Of a stretch of 64,000 nucleotides of DNA, positions 3,702 through 55,168 are shown piece by piece. Each line of letters starts with the position of its first letter. Position 1 is the stretch's first letter. The notes below the pieces were generated by a model. It made no database searches and had not been told where the DNA came from. It saw only the letters and a list, made by a program, of their open reading frames with translations. The position numbers were made by a program, and so were the translations under genes. Origin of the DNA: Candidatus Heimdallarchaeum aukensis (GTDB taxonomy: Archaea > Asgardarchaeota > Heimdallarchaeia > Heimdallarchaeales > Heimdallarchaeaceae); contig CP084166.1 in the NCBI GenBank assembly GCA_021513695.1, positions 2,112,001 to 2,176,000 on the forward strand. The letters run 5' to 3'.

Positions 3702-3789
3702 ATCTTCTTATTATGTTTATATCATTAATTATTTTTCCTTCGAAATGAAATCCTTATAAACATTTATTATTTCTCGAAATCAAGAGACA

Positions 3790-4389
3790 ATGTCCAACAG
3801 AATGAATCAATTATTGCTCTCAATCCGAAGACGATTGGGAAAGCCAGAAGTTTCTATATTGATTATGGGAAATGATACTCCAGCAGCTAGGAACAGAGTA
3901 AAACTATTGAATGCAGAAATCTCAATTGATGATTTTCTCTTAGATGACTATCTTTCTAAGCTTCCAGTTGAAGACAAGTTTAAGTTTAAACCTAAACTTT
4001 TCGAATCATTTGAGGGGATTTTGTACCTTATCGATGCTACAAAAGAAGATATGATTAAGCATGAGCGAGCTTTCTTCTGGGAAAAAATCGTTTGGAACGA
4101 GGATATAAGAGAGAAGCCAATTGCAATTTGTGCTTATAATAGTAATTTACAAGGCTCTTTAACCAGTGGAGAACTCATAGAGAATCTGTCACTTGTTAGA
4201 TTAACAGATAGGGTTTGGAAGTTATTTGAGGTTGGAGACGTTAACGACTTATTAAGCGCATTAAACTGGCTTAAGGAAGCGATATGGATGGGTTGGACAT
4301 TAGATTGGGAAAGAAAAGAAAGTCTTAAAACTAAACTTTCTCAAAAAAAGATTGTTATTGTAGATAAGAAAAATGATAATGAATCTTAA
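3790..4389 (+). CDS. Arf-family small GTPase homologue with degenerate nucleotide-binding motifs (putative pseudo-GTPase)
   Basis: It aligns end to end with Arf1. 'RLGKPEVSILIMGNDTPAARNRVKLL' matches '[26 protein letters not shown]', so the P-loop GKT is replaced by AAR. There is no DxxGQ switch II. 'AICAYNSNL' sits where Arf has 'LLVFANKQDL', so NKxD is lost. The C-terminal 'VGDVNDLLSALNWL' matches Arf 'SGDGLYEGLDWL'. Confidence 0.55.
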   Translation: MSNRMNQLLLSIRRRLGKPEVSILIMGNDTPAARNRVKLLNAEISIDDFLLDDYLSKLPVEDKFKFKPKLFESFEGILYLIDATKEDMIKHERAFFWEKIVWNEDIREKPIAICAYNSNLQGSLTSGELIENLSLVRLTDRVWKLFEVGDVNDLLSALNWLKEAIWMGWTLDWERKESLKTKLSQKKIVIVDKKNDNES

Positions 4390-4427: not shown

Positions 4428-5981
4428 ATGGTCAATACAGTTGAGGAATTAATAAAAACTGGCTATAAAGGGTATTCAGTTAGGCATATATTAATGAATA
4501 ACGAATTTAGAAAACGTGTAATCAATGATCCAAGTGTTAGAGGAAATGAAGACGCAAAGAATTTAGTCATGGATAAGCTTGCTGTCGGAGGAAAAGTACT
4601 TATCACAGGTCCTACAGGAGAAGCTAAAACGCTATTCAGTCGTATTCTCCTAGATCACATAGTTCGAGAAATTAATGATCATAAGTATCATATTGATTCC
4701 TGTCCTTTCCTTGAGGACGCAGGATACATTATTGATGTTATCGAGCAATTTGAAGTTGATCCGTTCAATGGAATAAAGGTTTTACAATCTCTTTGTCCTT
4801 TCTGTAGAGCTAAAATTGAAAATGCTTTGAGTGATGGGAAAGGAGATGTAAAATTAGATAATACAGCAAGTGTTCTTAAAACTAAACCCGTTGAATTCAA
4901 AGAAAAATTATTAAAAATCGGTGTAGAAAAAACTGTTGTACGAAAAGCACAACTTGACCCAAGAACAGACCCTGAAAGTCTCTATATGCTATTAGCTGGT
5001 GTAGAAAATCTAGAAGAACTGTTTGGAAAGGAAACTTCAACAACTTACACTCCAACATCACATAAAGTAGGTGTGCTTAGTAAAGGTTTTATTGTAGTTA
5101 ACGAAATTCAACGTCTTCCCCTATCCTTGCTCGAAGCACTGATGGGCTTTCTTGAAGACACAACTTCAATAAAGTATAATCTTCAAGGAGAACCTGTTTA
5201 TATTGATGGAGCAATGATATTTACTTCTAATGCTCCCTTAACAGTATTTGGAGAAGAATCACAACCTATTATCAATCGTATTCCAGAAGTTCTTTGGCCT
5301 GCAAGATCCGTGGAAAGTAGAAGTCAAATTGTTCGAGATATGTTTAGAGAACAAATTACGCTTTCTAGACAAAAAATAACCGCAAATCCAAGCATTGTTC
5401 AGTTGTATGATCGAGAAAAAAGCTCGAAGGATTATGTGAGTAAATTAGCCATAGATTTCCTCGCATTCATTGGAAATAACTCTTTACCAGAAGCTCTTAA
5501 AAAAGGACGAATTCGTTCTGAAAGTAGAGTTCAAAGATTAGACTTTTACGCAGGATTAGATGAAATCCATGATCCTCAAAGAAATCCACATATCGATTTA
5601 CGTACAACATCAAACATTGTGGGTAGCGTGTTGCTCAATAGAGAACGAGAACTTCAAGACGAAGAATATAATGTTGTTACAATAGAACATGTAAGAAAAG
5701 TATTAAACGATTACGATATTCCTTTAGCAATGATAAATGATGCACTACAGGAAATAAAAATAAAACTTAGATCCAACCTTAAAAGCGCGGGAATGGCTGT
5801 AAAAGCAGAAGATATAAGTGAAGATATATCAAAGATGAAGGCATTAAGTGACGAAGAATTATCCGAATTGATTATCAATTACGAAAAACTAGAACGATAC
5901 TATGAATCAGATGTTTTACCTAAAATCGTTGAACAACTCAAACCGAGTTATGAAGCTCTATTGAAGGTAGACTATATCTAA
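4428..5981 (+). CDS. AAA+ ATPase of the MoxR/Mg-chelatase ChlI-like clade
   Basis: 'RGNEDAKNLVMDKLAVGGKVLITGPTGEAKT' parallels ChlI 'VGQEEMKLALLL..GGVLIMGDRGTGKST' and supplies Walker A. 'GFIVVNEIQRLPLSLLEALMGFLED...IDGAMIFTSNAP' parallels the ChlI Walker B and sensor region. It starts 38 nt downstream of the Arf-like gene. Confidence 0.75.
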   Translation: MVNTVEELIKTGYKGYSVRHILMNNEFRKRVINDPSVRGNEDAKNLVMDKLAVGGKVLITGPTGEAKTLFSRILLDHIVREINDHKYHIDSCPFLEDAGYIIDVIEQFEVDPFNGIKVLQSLCPFCRAKIENALSDGKGDVKLDNTASVLKTKPVEFKEKLLKIGVEKTVVRKAQLDPRTDPESLYMLLAGVENLEELFGKETSTTYTPTSHKVGVLSKGFIVVNEIQRLPLSLLEALMGFLEDTTSIKYNLQGEPVYIDGAMIFTSNAPLTVFGEESQPIINRIPEVLWPARSVESRSQIVRDMFREQITLSRQKITANPSIVQLYDREKSSKDYVSKLAIDFLAFIGNNSLPEALKKGRIRSESRVQRLDFYAGLDEIHDPQRNPHIDLRTTSNIVGSVLLNRERELQDEEYNVVTIEHVRKVLNDYDIPLAMINDALQEIKIKLRSNLKSAGMAVKAEDISEDISKMKALSDEELSELIINYEKLERYYESDVLPKIVEQLKPSYEALLKVDYI

Positions 5982-6006: not shown

Positions 6007-7392
6007 ATGCCCCATCGAATTTTTTTACTTACGGAATCAGAGTTTAGAGACCCTCTACAAAATTACGGCGATGCTGAGTTTATATTAGACTTTGAAGGTG
6101 CTGCTGAATTATTAAAACTTTGGCGTAATCCTCACCTAGGTAGGAGCTCTAGAGAAGGAGCTGTACTATCTTTAGGTGCAAAAAACGCTGTTGCAATCCA
6201 AAACATACTCCAAAAAATAATGACAACATATCTTACTGAAGCAGAAGAAGAGAGACTAATTAATGAACTAAAAATATTACAGTTTATTGGAGATAGAGTC
6301 CTCCCTGATGTTCTAGAACGTGTAAACAAGAACGAACTTCAAACAGTGGACGATATTATTCGATACATCCAGAATTTACTACGAGAACTGAAGTATGAGG
6401 GAACAGTTGATCTTAACCTTCTTGCAGATAAGTTGAACTCTCTTAAAGACATTGTTGATTTAGAAATTACAGATGCATACGGAAGAAAGAAGAGGATAAA
6501 ACGAGAAGAAGTGATGGATGTTTTAGGTAACATCCTTGGGCATTACCTTTTAAAGCAAATCAATGTTCTTCCTATTGATGAAGTTCAAAAACGCCCAAGA
6601 GGAACAATTAGACTTCGAGAAACCTATAAAAGTGCAGTGCTTAGTTCGCAATCAATTCCTCCAACGCGCGTAAAACAAGAAGATATTATCCGTGTGAAAA
6701 AAGATAGAAGAAGTTTAGTATATTTCTTAGTGGATTTAAGCCAATCAATGCAAAAAGAAGTGTTTGAGGGGGGAATGACAAGGTTAGATGGAGCTCTATT
6801 AACTGCTCTAAGTCTATATTACTACTTTAAAACCGCCAATAGGAGAAAAAGAAAGAGATACGATATGTTTCAACTTGCAGTAGTCCCTATTGTTCGAAAC
6901 CCCTTTGTAGTAGATGATGATACAAAAATGGAAGATCTTTTATTGAATGCTAAAGCCAAAGGAAAGACACATACTGTAAGCAGTGTTTTGAAAGCTATTG
7001 AGCATGCTAAAGCACAGTATAAGCATAAAAATATTGATGTTCAACTTACAATTGTAACGGATGGTATGCCAAACATACCTGTTTATCCATTTAATTACAA
7101 AATTAGTTCTTCATTAAAGAATTATTTCAATTCAATCGATACTAAAACCAGTCCAGAGACAATAGAGTGCTTGTTACAACTTAATGCCATATTTAAACAC
7201 TTAAAATCAGATCCTAATAGAAATTGGAACATAAGTTACTTTTTGATGGGTACAGAAGCTTTGAGAAAAAAGGAAATTTATAGTCATACGTATCAAATGT
7301 TGAAAGGTATAACTAAACCAATTTTAGTAGATCCTGCACAAATTAACAAACTTGGAGAGCAAGTACTACGGGAGAGTATTCACCATGCATAA
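6007..7392 (+). CDS. von Willebrand factor A (vWA) domain protein with intact MIDAS, partner of the upstream AAA+ ATPase
   Basis: The C-terminal half carries 'VYFLVDLSQSMQ' (DxSxS) and 'LTIVTDGMPN' (MIDAS Asp). An N-terminal region of about 220 aa has no recognised domain. Confidence 0.75.
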   Translation: MPHRIFLLTESEFRDPLQNYGDAEFILDFEGAAELLKLWRNPHLGRSSREGAVLSLGAKNAVAIQNILQKIMTTYLTEAEEERLINELKILQFIGDRVLPDVLERVNKNELQTVDDIIRYIQNLLRELKYEGTVDLNLLADKLNSLKDIVDLEITDAYGRKKRIKREEVMDVLGNILGHYLLKQINVLPIDEVQKRPRGTIRLRETYKSAVLSSQSIPPTRVKQEDIIRVKKDRRSLVYFLVDLSQSMQKEVFEGGMTRLDGALLTALSLYYYFKTANRRKRKRYDMFQLAVVPIVRNPFVVDDDTKMEDLLLNAKAKGKTHTVSSVLKAIEHAKAQYKHKNIDVQLTIVTDGMPNIPVYPFNYKISSSLKNYFNSIDTKTSPETIECLLQLNAIFKHLKSDPNRNWNISYFLMGTEALRKKEIYSHTYQMLKGITKPILVDPAQINKLGEQVLRESIHHA

Positions 7393-8977
7393 AGAAGAAT
7401 TAGCTGACATCATTGATGTGTATCTGCAAGCAAGAAAAGATTTCTTAGAACTGGTAGGTGAAACACCAGAGAATTATAGAATACTTATTTTTCTTAACCC
7501 TGATTTACATATTTCTGTTAACAGGGTGATTGAAAGTGCAGGAACTCCCCAGGCAATCTTAACTGCTGAAGAAGTTGTTCATCTACAATCAGCAAGAAAT
7601 AATGAATATATGCCGTTAGGGAAAGAAACAGTTTTTAACAGCATACCCACACTAATTTATCTTTCAACACCTCGTTATGAATTGACAGAGGAAGAGAAAA
7701 TAACTTTGAGAATAATGATAGTTCATGCTTTTGCTCATGCCTATATGAATGAAAAAACAGAATCCAATAATCCTAAACAGTTATCTCGCATATACCAACT
7801 AGATGTAATTTTAAAAGAATTATTCCAAAATAATGCTTACAAAATTAACGAAGAAACAAACAAACAGTTGATGTGGACTTGGCAGTACTATCAAGATCTA
7901 ATAAGCGTTATACGATTGTTTGTTGAGGCTGGAGTACAAGACTTTTATTCTCCTCCTGAAGAAGCAAGAAAATACACTTTATTCAACAACTTTTCAATTG
8001 AGGTTATTAAGGTTCTAAAGGAAAGAGCAAAAGAATCAAGAAAGAAACATCTCCACGATTTAATCGATGAAGGATTTGCATTCTATATTCAAAGGATGCA
8101 TTTAGATTATTTGAATAAAAATAAACAAGTCCCCAAGAATCTTCCTAAAGAACTTAAACCCTTTATGGCTCCCCCTGTTGGAAAAATAAGTTTGTTCTTA
8201 GTTGATAAACTAAAATTGGCTATAAGCGAACAAATAGAAAAGGAGAAAAAGGAGAGCCTTTCGTCAGAAGAAATTGAAAAAAGATTGTTTGATAAACTGT
8301 TTAGCTTTAGGACTGATTTAGAATTTCTTGAGACTTTTGATTGGCAAGAGCTAAAAAATTGGGTGTCTGAACAAAAAAGAGCTCATTCAGAAAAAGTGTT
8401 AAAGGATTGGCATGTAACAACTACCAATTTCACTGATATTTGGTCTGTTTATGCTTATGGTTGGACACAACTGGAAAATTACATCAAAAAGATATATAGA
8501 AAGAAATACAGTACTTTTGGACAATTGATGGATGATAACCCAAAAATAGAATTCAAGGGATATTTAACTGTTGATGAAAAGAAAGTTTATGTCTTTGAAA
8601 TCAATAACGAAGGTGTGGGACTAGATCAATTGGTTATTTTGCATAATCACATGGCTTTATATCGTGAAGATTTTGCTACCATACTTCCTGCTTTTGCAGA
8701 CATTATCGCTTTCAAAAAAATCAGAGGTATGCACGTTGCAACTTTGTTTGCTGTCCATAAAATTAGTAGAAAACAACCAATTAGTCCCTATAACTTGCCT
8801 ATTGTGACTAGAGCTGTTCAAGTAACGAAAAGAAAGGATGCATACAAAACTGAACTCGATGAAGAAAAAGAGAAAATGGAAGTTGAACGAGTAGACTATA
8901 CACATTTGAAGAAACTCTCTCAACCTCAAAGAAACGCTATAAGTTATCTAATAAAGGAAGGAATGTACTATGTTTAA
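7352..8977 (+). CDS. hypothetical protein (541 aa), co-operonic with the MoxR/vWA pair; the true start is possibly the ATG at 7385
   Basis: It is a long ORF with a possible degenerate zincin-like 'IVHAFAHAYMNE' (HxxxH without Glu). Its start overlaps the vWA stop (ATGCATAA coupling at 7385) and its stop overlaps the next start (ATGTTTAA). Confidence 0.5.
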   Translation: MESKYYGRVFTMHKEELADIIDVYLQARKDFLELVGETPENYRILIFLNPDLHISVNRVIESAGTPQAILTAEEVVHLQSARNNEYMPLGKETVFNSIPTLIYLSTPRYELTEEEKITLRIMIVHAFAHAYMNEKTESNNPKQLSRIYQLDVILKELFQNNAYKINEETNKQLMWTWQYYQDLISVIRLFVEAGVQDFYSPPEEARKYTLFNNFSIEVIKVLKERAKESRKKHLHDLIDEGFAFYIQRMHLDYLNKNKQVPKNLPKELKPFMAPPVGKISLFLVDKLKLAISEQIEKEKKESLSSEEIEKRLFDKLFSFRTDLEFLETFDWQELKNWVSEQKRAHSEKVLKDWHVTTTNFTDIWSVYAYGWTQLENYIKKIYRKKYSTFGQLMDDNPKIEFKGYLTVDEKKVYVFEINNEGVGLDQLVILHNHMALYREDFATILPAFADIIAFKKIRGMHVATLFAVHKISRKQPISPYNLPIVTRAVQVTKRKDAYKTELDEEKEKMEVERVDYTHLKKLSQPQRNAISYLIKEGMYYV

Positions 8978-9719
8978 AAGATGGTTAATGATAAAAAAAT
9001 TAGGAAGCGAAATAGACTTAGATAGACTAAAAGCTGTTCTTTTTTTAAGAAAGAAAGGGAAAGACAAGGACATCAATAATCTTTTGCCACTTTTAAGTGA
9101 CAAGGATTGGAATGTAAGAAACGCTACAGCATTGACTATAATTAAACTCGTTAATCTTTATCCAGAAAAAAAAGAGGAAATCCTACTAAAGCTTCATCAA
9201 TTACTTGAAAAGAGATCCTTAGCTACAAAACTGTCTGTATTGGAAATCCTGGGACAGTTAAGAGACTATTCCTCGAAAGATTTTATCAAAAAAATTATTG
9301 AAGAAAGTGATTATGATTTACAATATGCAGCTATTAGAGCAATAGGTTATCTTGATGACGTTGACATTTTATCTTCTTTGAAAGAAGTGGTTTACTCAAA
9401 AGATTACATCACACGAAGAGCAGTGATCTTTTCAATATTGCGAATAGTTAATTCAGTTGAAGAAGAAAAGAAAGTTGAACTCCTAACTCCTCACATCCAC
9501 TTATTAATTCAAGTTTATTTAGAGTTAAATGAATTGGGCGAGGTAATCTATAAAATCCTAGATTACGGAGATCCAGAGCAATTTCCAGGAATGAAACCGT
9601 ATTCAGAATTTGAGATAATCAGATTAACTTCATTAATTGAACAATACGATTATCGAGTTCCAGTCTATAAGAACTTTGCAAAAATAATTTATCCTCTTTA
9701 TTTTCCTTTAAATAGTTGA
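8970..9719 (+). CDS. HEAT-repeat (PBS-lyase-like) protein
   Basis: It contains repeated 'LLPLLSDKDWNVRNATALTIIKL'-type alpha-helical repeats and is the last gene of the tightly coupled operon. Confidence 0.6.
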   Translation: MFKRWLMIKKLGSEIDLDRLKAVLFLRKKGKDKDINNLLPLLSDKDWNVRNATALTIIKLVNLYPEKKEEILLKLHQLLEKRSLATKLSVLEILGQLRDYSSKDFIKKIIEESDYDLQYAAIRAIGYLDDVDILSSLKEVVYSKDYITRRAVIFSILRIVNSVEEEKKVELLTPHIHLLIQVYLELNELGEVIYKILDYGDPEQFPGMKPYSEFEIIRLTSLIEQYDYRVPVYKNFAKIIYPLYFPLNS

Positions 9720-9723
9720 ATTT

Positions 9724-10048
9724 AATCACCATCTATTTTTTACTTCTTGTCTACTGCAATTTCACTGCAACTTTTTTTGATATTTTATAAATCAAGATGT
9801 GCATTTATACTTTTGACCTTTATTCTTGCATTATTTCTTTTTTACTGCAATTTCTCTGCAGATTTAATGCAATTTCCACTGCAATTTTACTGCAATGTTT
9901 GAATTTATTTTATAAAATGTTATATTCTTGAATAATATAGCTTATAACTCCTAATTTTATTATGGATGTCTAATATACGTTATTGAAAGGTGGTATATTA
10001 TTATTTGTTACTTTCTTATTGTAAAGAACCCCTTATTAGATGGTGATT
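9724..10048. repeat. intergenic element bounded by a 12-bp perfect inverted repeat and containing tandem ACTGCAAT-type repeats
   Basis: 'AATCACCATCTA' at 9724-9735 is the reverse complement of 'TAGATGGTGATT' at 10037-10048. Between them lie at least six copies of '(A/T)TTT(C/T)ACTGCAA(T)' at about 9750-9895. Confidence 0.35.
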
Positions 10049-10815: not shown

Positions 10816-12798
10816 ATGCCATTAAACATCGAAACTCCTTTTACTCCTAAAGGAGACCAACCTAAAGCTATTGAACAATTAGTGGAAGGAATAAAAAAAG
10901 GGTATAAACTACAGACACTTTTAGGGACTACGGGAAGCGGGAAAACTGACAGCATAGCATGGGTCATTGACCGTCTTAAACTTCCCACTTTGGTTATTGC
11001 CCCTAACAAAACTCTCGCTGCTCAACTTTATGGTGAGTTTAAAGTTCTTTTTCCTTCAGCTCGTGTTGAGTATTTTGTTAGTTTTTATGATTATTATCAA
11101 CCTGAAGCTTATCTTCCTTCCAAGGATCTTCTTATTGAGAAAGATTTTGATATTAACGAAGAAATTGAACGCTTACGCCATTCTGCCACCGAAGCATTAG
11201 CTACTCGCGATGACGTGATAGTTGTTGCTTCTGTTAGTTGTATTTATGGCATTGGAGACCCTGCAATCTATCGAGCAAAGCGTTTAGAGCTTGTTGTTGG
11301 ACAAGAATTTGATAGAGAAGAGTTAATGACACAACTCATCAATAACCGATATGAACGTAACGATATTAATCTAACTAGAGGAAAGTTTAGGGTTCGGGGA
11401 GACACTATCGATATTTTTCCTCAGTATGGAGATTATATTTATCGTGTAGAATTTTTCGGAGATGAAATAGAAAGATTAACTTCCAGAGATCCTGTTACAT
11501 ATAACCAAGTTCGTGAATTCCAAGAACTCACCTTTTATCCTGGAACACATTATCTTACTCGTGATAATTTATTTGACCAAGCTTTAGCTGATATAGAACA
11601 AGAGCTGGAAGAACGATTGGCTGAATTAAAAAGTCAAGGTAAACTTGTTGAATATCAAAGGCTCAAACAACGGACGAAATATGATCTAGAATTACTAAGA
11701 GAGACAAAATATTGTCCTGGAATTGAAAATTATTCTCGTCATTTAGACAGAAGAAAAAAAGGAGAACCTCCTTATACTCTGATGGATCATATGCCTGATG
11801 ATTTTCTTTTGGTAATTGATGAGAGTCATCTTACTATTCCACAAATAAAAGGAATGTTTGGTGGAGACTATTCTCGAAAAAAGAATCTAGTAGATTATGG
11901 TTTTAGATTACCTAGCGCTTTTGATAATAGACCTTTAAAATTTGATGAATTTAAGAAATATATGAAAAAAGTCATCTTTACTAGTGCAACTCCTGGGCCT
12001 TATGAAATTGAGCACTCTGAACAGATAGTGGAGCAGATTATTAGACCTACAGGGCTTGTAGATCCTAAAATTGAAGTAAGAAAAACAGAAGGGCAAATTG
12101 ATGACCTATTAGGAGAAATAAAAAAACAAGTTAGGAAGGGTGGTAGAGTACTTGTTACCACATTAACAAAAGACAACGCTGAGATGCTTTCGGATTATTT
12201 AATTGATAACGGAATCAACTCTGTCTATTTACATCATGAAGTAGATACATTAGACAGAATAAACATATTAAGGGACTTAAGAATCGGAAAATATGATGTC
12301 ATAGTTGGGATTAATCTTCTTCGTGAAGGACTAGACCTTCCAGAAGTAGGGTTAGTCGCTATTCTTGATGCAGATAAAGAAGGTTTTCTAAGATCTAAAA
12401 GCTCTCTAATTCAATTAATGGGTAGAGCAAGTAGAAACGTTAGCGGGAGTGTTATTTTGTATGCTGATAAAATTACAGATTCTATGAAAGAAGCTATATT
12501 TGAGAATAACAGACGAAGAAGAATACAGATAGAATATAATCGAAAACATGGAATTAACCCTCAAACAATAAAGAAAGAAGTGAAATCCATAGTAGAAACT
12601 TTAATGCAAGTGTCTCAAAAGGAGGAAGAGGAAGAGATAACTATTGATAGAAGTGAACTCACAGTAGAAAAGATAATGGCTATTATCAATGAACTAAAAG
12701 AGAAAATGGCAGAAGCTGCTGCCAACCTAGAATTTGAAAAAGCTGCTATTTACAGAGATAAAATACGTGAAATTGAGAAGCAGGTAGATACTAAATGA
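10816..12798 (+). CDS. uvrB: excinuclease ABC subunit B
   Basis: 'GDQPKAIEQL', Walker A 'GTTGSGKT', helicase motifs, and the C-terminal UvrB/UvrC interaction helix 'FEKAAIYRDKIREIE' are all present. Confidence 0.95.
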   Translation: MPLNIETPFTPKGDQPKAIEQLVEGIKKGYKLQTLLGTTGSGKTDSIAWVIDRLKLPTLVIAPNKTLAAQLYGEFKVLFPSARVEYFVSFYDYYQPEAYLPSKDLLIEKDFDINEEIERLRHSATEALATRDDVIVVASVSCIYGIGDPAIYRAKRLELVVGQEFDREELMTQLINNRYERNDINLTRGKFRVRGDTIDIFPQYGDYIYRVEFFGDEIERLTSRDPVTYNQVREFQELTFYPGTHYLTRDNLFDQALADIEQELEERLAELKSQGKLVEYQRLKQRTKYDLELLRETKYCPGIENYSRHLDRRKKGEPPYTLMDHMPDDFLLVIDESHLTIPQIKGMFGGDYSRKKNLVDYGFRLPSAFDNRPLKFDEFKKYMKKVIFTSATPGPYEIEHSEQIVEQIIRPTGLVDPKIEVRKTEGQIDDLLGEIKKQVRKGGRVLVTTLTKDNAEMLSDYLIDNGINSVYLHHEVDTLDRINILRDLRIGKYDVIVGINLLREGLDLPEVGLVAILDADKEGFLRSKSSLIQLMGRASRNVSGSVILYADKITDSMKEAIFENNRRRRIQIEYNRKHGINPQTIKKEVKSIVETLMQVSQKEEEEEITIDRSELTVEKIMAIINELKEKMAEAAANLEFEKAAIYRDKIREIEKQVDTK

Positions 12799-31233: not shown

Positions 31234-31336
31234 TGGTGGGGACGGCACGACTTGAACGCGCGACCAACAGGTATCTACGTTTTTTCAAATTATTAAACTC
31301 TGGAGCCTGCCACTCTACCTACTGAGCTACGTCCCC
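31234..31336 (-). tRNA. tRNA-Trp (anticodon CCA) with a ~27-nt intron in the anticodon arm; 3' CCA is encoded
   Basis: The reverse complement folds as acceptor GGGGACG/CGTCCCC, D-arm GCUC-AGUAGGUA-GAGU, anticodon stem GCAGG/CCUGU with loop CUCCAGA, intron GUUUAAUAAUUUGAAAAAACGUAGAUA, T-arm GCGCG-UUCAAGU-CGUGC, and discriminator A followed by CCA. It is a GC-rich island in AT-rich DNA. Confidence 0.8.
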
Positions 31337-54250: not shown

Positions 54251-55168
54251 TTATTCAGTTGTTAACCTCTTTGCTCTTCTAATTTCTGTAATTGCATCAA
54301 TTGCTTCAAATCTAACTCGTTCATCAGGGTCTTTTGTTGAAATTATAATTAGCTTATTAATAGCTTCTTCTGCCTTTAACTCTCTTAGTATATCTATTGA
54401 TTCCATTTTTATTTTTGGGTTATTATCATCTAAACATTTTAAACAACATTCAATTATTTGTTCTCTATTCTCAGCTTTAACTGCAACTATTTTATTCAAT
54501 TCTTGAAGTGCACTCAATTTTACTTCCCAGTTTTTGTCATAAGTTTGTTTTACTAGCAATGGTACTGCACTCCCTATTAATCTAAAAGTAATAAATCTTG
54601 TAGCAACATCTCGAATAAATGGGTTTGTGTGTTTAAGAAAAGATATGACCAACTCTTCAGAGATTTTATCACTTAGCTTCAAACCTAGTAAAACTCTTTC
54701 TGCCTTGTTTTTCACTGCCTCATTTTCATCTGAAAGAGCTTCAAAAAGAGGTTTTATAATCTGTATACTGTCAAAAGAAGCTAATGCTTTTACTGCCTCA
54801 TATCTTACCTTATCACTTTGATCAAGGATTCTTTTTGCAATGTGTTCAATAGCTTGCTCGTCTTTTAGTAGTGCTAAACTTCTTAAAGCAGAAACTCTTA
54901 CTTCATAGGAAAGATCATGAAGAGAATCAATTAAAGGAAAAAGAGCTTTTTTACTACCCATTTTCCCTAACATTTCTGCTGCATAAGCTCTAATTTCTTG
55001 CTTATCATCAGATAAAGCCCCAAGAAGTGCCTGAATACTTTCTTCTACTTCAGGTTTTTCAGCTAATTGCTCAATTGCTAACAAACGAAGAGCTAAAATT
55101 TGATTTTTATCTTTTAATGTGTTAATTAGTTTTGTTACATTATCATTATTCATGCTCATTAATAACAA
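54251..55168 (-). CDS. HEAT-repeat (PBS-lyase-like) protein
   Basis: It has at least eight tandem repeats of the 'VRxxAaxALGxIG...AIxxLIxLLxD' type. Confidence 0.6.
   Translation of the reverse strand: MLLMSMNNDNVTKLINTLKDKNQILALRLLAIEQLAEKPEVEESIQALLGALSDDKQEIRAYAAEMLGKMGSKKALFPLIDSLHDLSYEVRVSALRSLALLKDEQAIEHIAKRILDQSDKVRYEAVKALASFDSIQIIKPLFEALSDENEAVKNKAERVLLGLKLSDKISEELVISFLKHTNPFIRDVATRFITFRLIGSAVPLLVKQTYDKNWEVKLSALQELNKIVAVKAENREQIIECCLKCLDDNNPKIKMESIDILRELKAEEAINKLIIISTKDPDERVRFEAIDAITEIRRAKRLTTE

Follow-up and report, generated by a model that had tools for sequence, protein, structure and literature searches.

The closest characterised proteins to the one described here are the Arf-family GTPases of Asgard archaea, namely the ArfRs (HodArfR1 and GerdArfR1; PDB 8OUL, 8OUK and 8OUN; bioRxiv 10.1101/2024.02.28.582541) and the AArfs (PMC11914678), which have well-conserved G boxes, bind both GTP and GDP, and possess the interswitch toggle. 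In a stretch of 64,000 nucleotides (nt) from Candidatus Heimdallarchaeum aukensis (assembly GCA_021513695.1, contig CP084166.1, positions 2,112,001 to 2,176,000 of the forward strand; this whole stretch is referred to as the window), we analysed an Arf-derived pseudo-GTPase gene (pArf, with the product pseudo-Arf) that occupies positions 3790..4389 on the + strand, starts with ATG, encodes 199 amino acids (aa), and is the first gene of a cluster that also encodes an AAA+ ATPase, a VWA-domain protein, a protein of no recognised fold (termed G4) and a HEAT-repeat protein. (The open reading frame had been picked out, with the same coordinates, in a sequence-only reading of the window, which took its product for an Arf-family protein with three eroded nucleotide-binding motifs.) In contrast to the ArfRs and AArfs, pseudo-Arf lacks motifs G1–G5, has a shortened interswitch and an extension at the C-terminus, and is encoded in an operon with AAA+ and VWA genes; when compared to eukaryotic Arf/Arl/Sar1 proteins (PF00025), it lacks the nucleotide-binding motifs, is ~16 residues shorter from helix 1 to strand 4 and is 16–22% identical. 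Because G1–G5 and the interswitch hairpin are missing, we regard pseudo-Arf, on grounds of homology, as a derivative of Arf, but do not class it among the Arf GTPases. The reading we favour, to which we would give a probability of roughly 60%, is that pseudo-Arf is a constitutive, nucleotide-independent adaptor subunit of a Heimdallarchaeia-specific AAA+/VWA (MoxR-type) remodelling machine.

Hidden Markov model (HMM), profile–profile and structure comparisons agree in assigning pseudo-Arf an Arf fold, and no profile match to a non-GTPase fold was found. In particular, the Pfam Arf model PF00025 matches residues 70–164 only, with 28.1 bits (gathering threshold (GA) 22.3) and an E-value (E) of 1.7e-6; the chains that phmmer matched among PDB sequences were all Arf/Arl proteins, including the Asgard ArfR structures 8OUL and 8OUK; and hhalign, run with a profile of 33 orthologues against 29 canonical Arfs, aligned residues 12–177 with a probability of 99.3 and an E of 1.4e-20. 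The likeness is unevenly spread. The sequence-only reading had described a match to Arf1 that was nearly residue for residue from the N-terminal helix through the P-loop; this holds for the strand-1 stretch GKPEVSILIMG, in which 6 of 11 residues are identical to Arf1, but not for the N-terminal helix, whose sequence is dissimilar, nor for the overall identity given above. Strand 4 of pseudo-Arf (YLIDAT) pairs with FVVDSND of Arf, and the R-x-W signature of helix 4-strand 6 and the WL of helix 5 are common to pseudo-Arf and the Arf/Arl/Sar1 family (in both hhalign and MAFFT alignments, GLDWL of Arf1 falls opposite ALNWL of pseudo-Arf). The C-terminal helix, which had also been called conserved, does align, with VGDVNDLLSALNWL in pseudo-Arf against SGDGLYEGLDWL in Arf.

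An AlphaFold2 (AF2) model of pseudo-Arf, built from an alignment of 97 sequences, distant relatives and canonical Arfs among them, had a predicted local distance difference test score (pLDDT) of 90.1 and a predicted template modelling score of 0.85. The predicted elements are, in the N-terminal half, a helix (residues 2–15), a strand (21–28), a helix (31–43), a strand (49–56) and an ordered loop (57–75), and, in the C-terminal half, a strand (76–82), a helix (86–101), a strand (111–116), a helix (126–132), a strand (143–148) and two helices (151–166 and 173–196). Foldseek returned HodArfR1-GDP as the top match of the model (E 2.5e-10), and structure comparison of the model identified a Ras-like alpha/beta fold that is closest to the Arf/Arl/Sar structures. 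As modelled, the sequence is compatible with an Arf fold from which one interswitch strand and the switch-II helix are absent.

Pseudo-Arf has lost all five G motifs, rather than the three (G1, G3 and G4) counted in the sequence-only reading, with G2 (the switch-I Thr) and G5 (SAx) missing too. The former P-loop (G1; G27-N-D-T-P-A-A-R34-N35-R36, positions 3868..3897, + strand) has GNDTPAAR at residues 27–34, in the same position as GLDAAGKT of Arf1 in both the MAFFT and the hhalign alignment, and the alignments agree in placing the former G4 motif, Y116-N-S-N119 (4135..4146, + strand), opposite NKQD of Arf; both replacements had been correctly recognised from the sequence. The stretch from helix 1 to strand 4 (3919..4014, + strand), in which the AF2 pLDDT is 93–97, has neither the switch-I Thr nor DxxGQ. 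It had been correctly described as shortened and as lacking the DxxG of G3; however, it is ~16 residues shorter than in Arf1, not ~10, and the site of the deletion depends on the alignment, with hhalign dropping strand 3 and switch II, and MAFFT together with the AF2 secondary structure suggesting instead that switch I and strand 2 were lost and the switch-II helix replaced. Between helix 1 and strand 4 the model has a single strand (49–56), and the absence of the interswitch beta2-beta3 hairpin, which in Arfs can toggle by two residues, is accordingly a prediction-based and moderately secure result. D82, at the end of strand 4, is kept.

The loss of these motifs extends to the whole family. 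(Three clades of the cluster were distinguished by the identity of the AAA+ protein to that of the window, which is 67–98% in clade A, ~55–57% in clade B and ~52–54% in clade C.) A regular-expression search found GxxxxGK[ST] nowhere in pseudo-Arf or in 47 distinct operon-linked orthologues from the three clades, so that the P-loop is not restored elsewhere in the sequence; a correctly placed NKxD or DxxG was likewise found in none of the 47, and in the alignment the switch-I Thr and DxxGQ (with the catalytic Gln) occur in none of the three clades. The G4 position reads YNSN in clade A, is of the IPxS type in clade B and reads YNAE in clade C, SAx is found in none, and the residues of the former P-loop differ in clades B (RVGK/N..) and C (GEKNDTRD). 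Given that G1, G3 and G4 are intact in no clade, the loss must be old, and either predates the split of the clades or occurred in parallel very early. Some distant relatives hold a shortened P-loop remnant, RVGKT, which suggests that the motifs were degraded stepwise; a GK[ST] remnant in some clade B proteins points the same way. With these motifs gone, pseudo-Arf is predicted to be unable to bind nucleotide, and with a G-domain fold and G1–G5 lost in all orthologues under selection it qualifies, at the level of sequence, as a pseudo-GTPase; descriptions of this class come mainly from eukaryotes. Note that the eukaryotic pseudo-GTPases (CENP-M, dynein light intermediate chain, the pG domains of p190RhoGAP, and the GTPase-like domain of FBXO4) are neither archaeal nor derived from Arf, that none has its gene beside an AAA+/VWA pair, and that their likeness to pseudo-Arf is one of analogy, with homology at the superfamily level.

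Pseudo-Arf is kept by purifying selection. The comparison with the H. endolithica orthologue gave a synonymous divergence (dS) of 0.177, a nonsynonymous divergence (dN) of 0.013 and a dN/dS of 0.072, which is comparable to that of the AAA+ gene (0.044; the AAA+ and VWA genes span 0.007–0.06). The close orthologues form 32 clusters at 90% identity, are 53–96% identical and ~200 aa long, and are all labelled Heimdallarchaeia. Over 33 orthologues 45 columns are invariant, including G27, R34, N35, R36, N117 and G122, and P31, A32 and Y116 are at least 90% conserved. The presence of G27, R34, N35 and R36 among the invariant columns argues that the old P-loop was replaced by a fixed new motif rather than left to drift. 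Thus, to call the motifs eroded, as the sequence-only reading did, is apt insofar as they are gone in every orthologue but misleading in that the former P-loop is, within Heimdallarchaeaceae, an invariant motif (G..PA.RNR) in a gene with a dN/dS of 0.07. In the shortened segment, L58, P59, F66, F71, F74 and E75 are invariant in clade A.

Across the three clades, the residues that are invariant or nearly so are G27, W97, W102, L124, L135, R137, D140, R141 and W160. Mean cross-clade conservation is 0.31 for residues 17–75 (the P-loop/switch half) versus 0.48 for residues 76–166, and reaches its maximum, the highest of the family across the three clades, at 0.65 in the helix 4-strand 6 block (residues 126–148, ...ELIENLSLVRLTDRVWKLFE; 4165..4233, + strand), where L135, R137 and D140 do not vary and R141 is conserved to at least 90%. 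Canonical Arfs have no such asymmetry (0.46 for the front versus 0.50 for the back half). When 1.84 billion representative proteins were searched with a profile, the ~20 nearest further clusters all lacked the P-loop and NKxD and all had FWExxxW and LSLxRLTDRxW in common with pseudo-Arf, and Arfs with intact motifs appeared only from an E of ~1e-9 and weaker. A cross-clade profile returned, from a large protein search, essentially the same Heimdallarchaeial set, with no eukaryotic or other archaeal members. (One distant motif-less Arf relative, P0034 at locus L006 10001-10612, lies 90 nt 3' of the gene for a 1187-aa protein with ~21 WD40 repeats, L006 6348-9911, and none of the AAA+, VWA and HEAT genes is near it at that locus.)

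The cluster was surveyed with a profile of the AAA+ protein over one genome per GTDB species, which gave 54 loci, and with an HMM for each component; the upstream region was present, and the locus therefore assessable, in 52 of the 54. In 43 of the 52, covering three clades of Heimdallarchaeia with differing flanks, genes for pseudo-Arf, AAA+, VWA, G4 and HEAT followed one another in this order on a single strand, which bears out the earlier description of the operon as conserved. In four close orthologue loci the same five genes stand between NUDIX on the upstream side and UvrB and UvrC on the downstream side; because the flanks too are shared, these loci do not count as independent evidence. 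The clade C cluster, however, is flanked by entirely different genes, and in all three clades the pseudo-Arf gene occupies the first position on the same strand with a spacing of 16–95 nt. HEAT is the last cluster gene in all clades and G4 is present in all complete clusters. Pseudo-Arf is ~200 aa long in clade A, 166–191 aa in clade B (which includes Kariarchaeaceae) and 182–206 aa in clade C, and the cross-clade identity to the window proteins is 25–34% for pseudo-Arf, 53–57% for AAA+, 41–48% for VWA, 31–40% for G4 and 24–35% for HEAT. In clade C, a Roadblock/LC7 gene (Pfam 26.1 bits, GA 23; 133–138 aa) lies ~150 nt 3' of HEAT, on the HEAT strand, in all nine of the loci with enough sequence (L010 13507-13908, and L052-L057, L059 and L062); it is absent after HEAT in clades A and B. 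Two more distant AAA+ homologues stand alone.

We consider a fixed adaptor, rather than a switch, the most likely role of pseudo-Arf because all the GTP-binding motifs have been lost, selection on the gene is strong, and the gene is the first in a conserved operon. Judging from gene context, pseudo-Arf would be physically associated with the other operon products. It may dock to a partner via its conserved back half, with helix 3 (FWExxxW) and helix 4-strand 6 (LSLxRLTDRxW) as the putative surface, and the former nucleotide/switch half may be frozen, each lineage having remodelled it in its own way. The cationic N-terminal helix of Heimdallarchaeaceae could in addition tether the complex to a membrane or to another anionic surface. 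This predicted amphipathic helix (residues 2–15; 3793..3834, + strand) is without the Gly2 used for myristoylation; its hydrophobic moment is 0.55 versus 0.57 for Arf1, and it is polar and strongly cationic, with a mean hydrophobicity of -0.38 and a net charge of +4. (The helix is missing from clade C pseudo-Arfs.) At the other end, an extension beyond the Arf core (residues 167–199; 4288..4386, + strand), which includes the predicted extra helix 173–196, has invariant residues in clade A (G168, W173, K176, E177 and L179) and has no counterpart in Arf1.

Several observations weigh against a fixed adaptor in such a machine. The tie between pseudo-Arf and the AAA+/VWA proteins is one of gene adjacency only. 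Eight clade B loci have AAA+-VWA-G4-HEAT without an adjacent pseudo-Arf gene, and at one further locus that gene lies 1.8 kb upstream on the opposite strand; from its absence or displacement at these loci it follows that pseudo-Arf is dispensable or separable in some lineages. (In three of the eight the pseudo-Arf position 5' of AAA+ is filled by a gene for a protein of ~193–267 aa with a CxxC...CxxC zinc-ribbon N-terminus, at L048 9359-9940, L050 9345-9929 and L060 2454-3257.) Moreover, distant motif-less relatives occur in other contexts, beside the WD40 giant or a ParB-like protein. The helix 4-strand 6 block is a signature of the Arf-family fold, and its conservation may for that reason be structural rather than that of an interface. 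When AF2 was given an alignment of the family only (33 sequences, at least 53% identical), the pLDDT was 45, and the accepted model, having canonical Arfs in its alignment, is not independent of sequence homology. Finally, the invariant R-N-R at the old P-loop could bind a phosphate-bearing ligand.

Some of these observations would also fit a pseudo-Arf that is independent of the downstream genes, for example a membrane-bound factor, with adjacency reflecting inherited synteny or shared regulation. The gene is lost or displaced in 9 of 52 genomes in which the other four genes stay together, motif-less Arf relatives occur in unrelated contexts, and pseudo-Arf evolves much faster than AAA+ (25–34% versus 53–57% cross-clade identity). 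Nevertheless, we think such independence unlikely when set against the constancy of strand, first position and spacing in three clades whose flanks are wholly different, and against the behaviour of the HEAT subunit, which evolves equally fast (24–35%) and yet is never lost.

It is a shade more doubtful that pseudo-Arf is a regulator that binds nucleotide or phosphate at a non-canonical site, in which G27 and R34-N35-R36 would form a new anion-binding loop and the protein would still be switching or sensing, with GTP, ATP, ppGpp or a phospholipid head group as candidate ligands. The near or complete invariance of G27, P31, A32, R34, N35 and R36 in 33 orthologues with an overall identity down to 53% speaks for such a site, as do the position of G27 and R-N-R, which is exactly that of the phosphate-binding loop, and the retention of D82 at the end of strand 4. 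However, the loop no longer has the Lys and Ser/Thr by which the beta-phosphate and Mg2+ are held, it has a Pro inside it, and NKxD and SAx (which confer guanine specificity), the switch-I Thr and DxxG have all been lost. Furthermore, clades B and C, with the same operon, lack R-N-R at this place, so that R-N-R cannot be what the operon subunit does in all clades.

Bacterial conflict systems include pairs of genes for a MoxR-like AAA+ protein and a VWA protein, with extra components, and two of the cluster subunits evolve fast; on these grounds the cluster could be a vWA-MoxR-type system for conflict or for defence against viruses, in which pseudo-Arf would act as sensor or decoy. We hold this to be very improbable in view of the single copy, the stable chromosomal position and the vertical pattern over three clades. 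In addition, PADLOC returned noise only (E at least 2.5e-4, scores below 18 bits), the AAA+ and VWA genes change very little (dN/dS 0.007–0.06), and a recognisable effector domain was not found in the cluster proteins.

By analogy, the cluster (with six genes where Roadblock/LC7 is included, in one clade) might be a Heimdallarchaeia-specific mechano-enzyme that echoes the parts list of dynein and midasin, a notion so speculative that we give it hardly any credence. On this view the motor would be the AAA_5/MoxR-related AAA+ protein, the MIDAS domain would correspond to that of midasin and the Ras-fold pseudo-GTPase to the dynein light intermediate chain, and Roadblock/LC7 and alpha-solenoid repeats would complete the list. 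Were it true, an archaeal small GTPase would have been drawn into an AAA+ machine before eukaryotes arose, as a structural subunit that does not switch, and pseudo-Arf might even relate to the ancestry of eukaryotic accessory chains. A decaying pseudogene or a chance reading frame with spurious similarity to Arf, as the loss of all catalytic motifs and the label 'hypothetical protein' in the source annotation might suggest, is refuted by the dN/dS of 0.072, the full-length orthologues in more than 40 species and the hhalign E of 1.4e-20.

The proteins encoded downstream bear on the nature of the putative remodelling machine. The divergent AAA+ ATPase (517 aa; 4428..5981, + strand), whose gene starts 38 nt past the pseudo-Arf stop, is recognised by weak Pfam matches and by invariant residues. 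Neither Walker A (GPTGEAKT) nor Walker B (VVNEIQ) varies; the Lys of the former and the Glu of the latter are retained, as are candidates for the sensor and Arg residues. In 20 of 20 diverse homologues Walker B has Asn-Glu (Asn225 in the window protein), not Asp-Glu. Matches to Sigma54_activat (19 of 20 members; best E 1.6e-5), AAA_5 (19 of 20; 4e-4) and Mg_chelatase (9 of 20; 0.047) are all sub-threshold, one homologue is labelled 'MoxR-like ATPase' by JGI, and profile searches of the PDB found no sequence-level relative. Between Walker A and Walker B lies a ~155-aa insert (residues 69–222) that holds an H88/C92/C123/C126 cluster, a possible Zn site; across clades K86 never varies and conservation of C92, C123 and C126 reaches at least 90%, and the invariance of H88 is confined to the five clade A orthologues.

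After a 25-nt spacer follows the gene for the VWA-domain protein (461 aa; 6007..7392, + strand), with a Pfam VWA_2 score of 17.2 bits (below the GA of 27) and a complete metal-ion-dependent adhesion site (MIDAS; D243-x-S245-x-S247 ... T321 ... D352) that is invariant in 50 orthologues; a profile search of the PDB gave nothing meaningful. A link to Sec23/24 (a VWA-like trunk with Sar1) appears unlikely from the sequence; the Pfam scan of the 461-aa protein found no further Sec23/24-type domain, and the full MIDAS is present, which the Sec23/24 trunk is not known to have. The G4 gene (~530 aa; 7352..8977, + strand) likely has its true ATG at 7385, which gives an 8-nt overlap with the VWA stop; the protein has no Pfam, NCBIfam or PADLOC match, and Pfam scans of 11 diverse orthologues gave noise only. 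The HEAT-repeat gene (249 aa; 8970..9719, + strand) overlaps G4 by 8 nt and is recognised by Pfam HEAT_2 (E 1.1e-12) and HEAT (2e-6). NCBIfam and PADLOC searches with all five cluster proteins yielded nothing informative except generic HEAT matches.

MoxR-type AAA+ proteins with VWA partners are known from the systems RavA-ViaA, CbbQ-CbbO, NorQ-NorD, BchI-BchD and CobS-CobT. As in those systems, an AAA+ protein with weak similarity to AAA_5, Sigma54 and Mg_chelatase families here adjoins a VWA protein with an intact MIDAS. Unlike in those systems, the AAA+ protein has the ~155-aa Cys-bearing insert, a Walker B with Asn-Glu and no sequence relative in the PDB. We know of none of the MoxR-type systems that has a subunit with a small-GTPase fold, a 530-aa protein of the G4 type or a HEAT protein.

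Upstream of the pseudo-Arf gene, a spacer of 88 nt separates it from the divergent NUDIX gene and contains a TATA-box-like CCTTATAAAC (3752..3761, + strand), read from the sequence, that lies ~30 nt 5' of the ATG and may mark the promoter. An exact-sequence look-up matched pseudo-Arf to K9W45_09415 of Candidatus Heimdallarchaeum aukensis, a hypothetical protein; for near-identical proteins from other metagenome-assembled genomes the NCBI name is 'ADP-ribosylation factor-like protein'.

A few further features of the window and of related loci were recorded. All four exact copies of ACTGCAAT in the window lie within a 150-nt AT-rich stretch 3' of the HEAT gene (9753-9896, + strand), which also holds the near-copies CACTGCAAC, TCTGCAGAT and ATGCAAT. 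The H. endolithica locus has five copies of the repeat in the same place (L011 15326-15469), and the other clade A loci have no such cluster; the stretch may serve as an array of protein-binding sites or specify a small RNA. A second protein with HEAT repeats, 305 aa long (54251-55168, - strand), matches the operon HEAT profile weakly (44 bits). The UvrB of the window (10816-12798, 660 aa) has no intein, and that of another locus (L003 7268-10918, 1216 aa) has an intein with a LAGLIDADG domain. A tRNA of 100 nt at 31237-31336 (- strand), with an Rfam score of 54.4 bits and not reported by ARAGORN, is probably an intron-containing archaeal tRNA.

In a full-text literature search, 'pseudoGTPase' and 'archaea' co-occurred in only two papers, and then with neither word in the title or abstract, and no literature combining Asgard, MoxR, vWA and GTPase was found. 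The genome paper of Candidatus Heimdallarchaeum aukensis does not mention the cluster, and accessions of the pseudo-Arf family were not found in the text-form supplements of the ArfR preprint (10.1101/2024.02.28.582541). So far, discussion of Asgard Arf-family proteins has treated them only as genuine switches that bind membranes and prefigure trafficking in eukaryotes. Pseudo-Arf adds an archaeal case to the pseudo-GTPase class, and shows that in Heimdallarchaeia, the class generally placed closest to eukaryotes, the Arf fold had already been re-used as a motif-less and presumably non-switching module, one that appears hard-wired to an AAA+/VWA/HEAT gene set found in Heimdallarchaeia only. 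Pseudo-Arf would thereby offer a testable entry to an uncharacterised and very conserved Heimdallarchaeial machine of five small-to-medium proteins.

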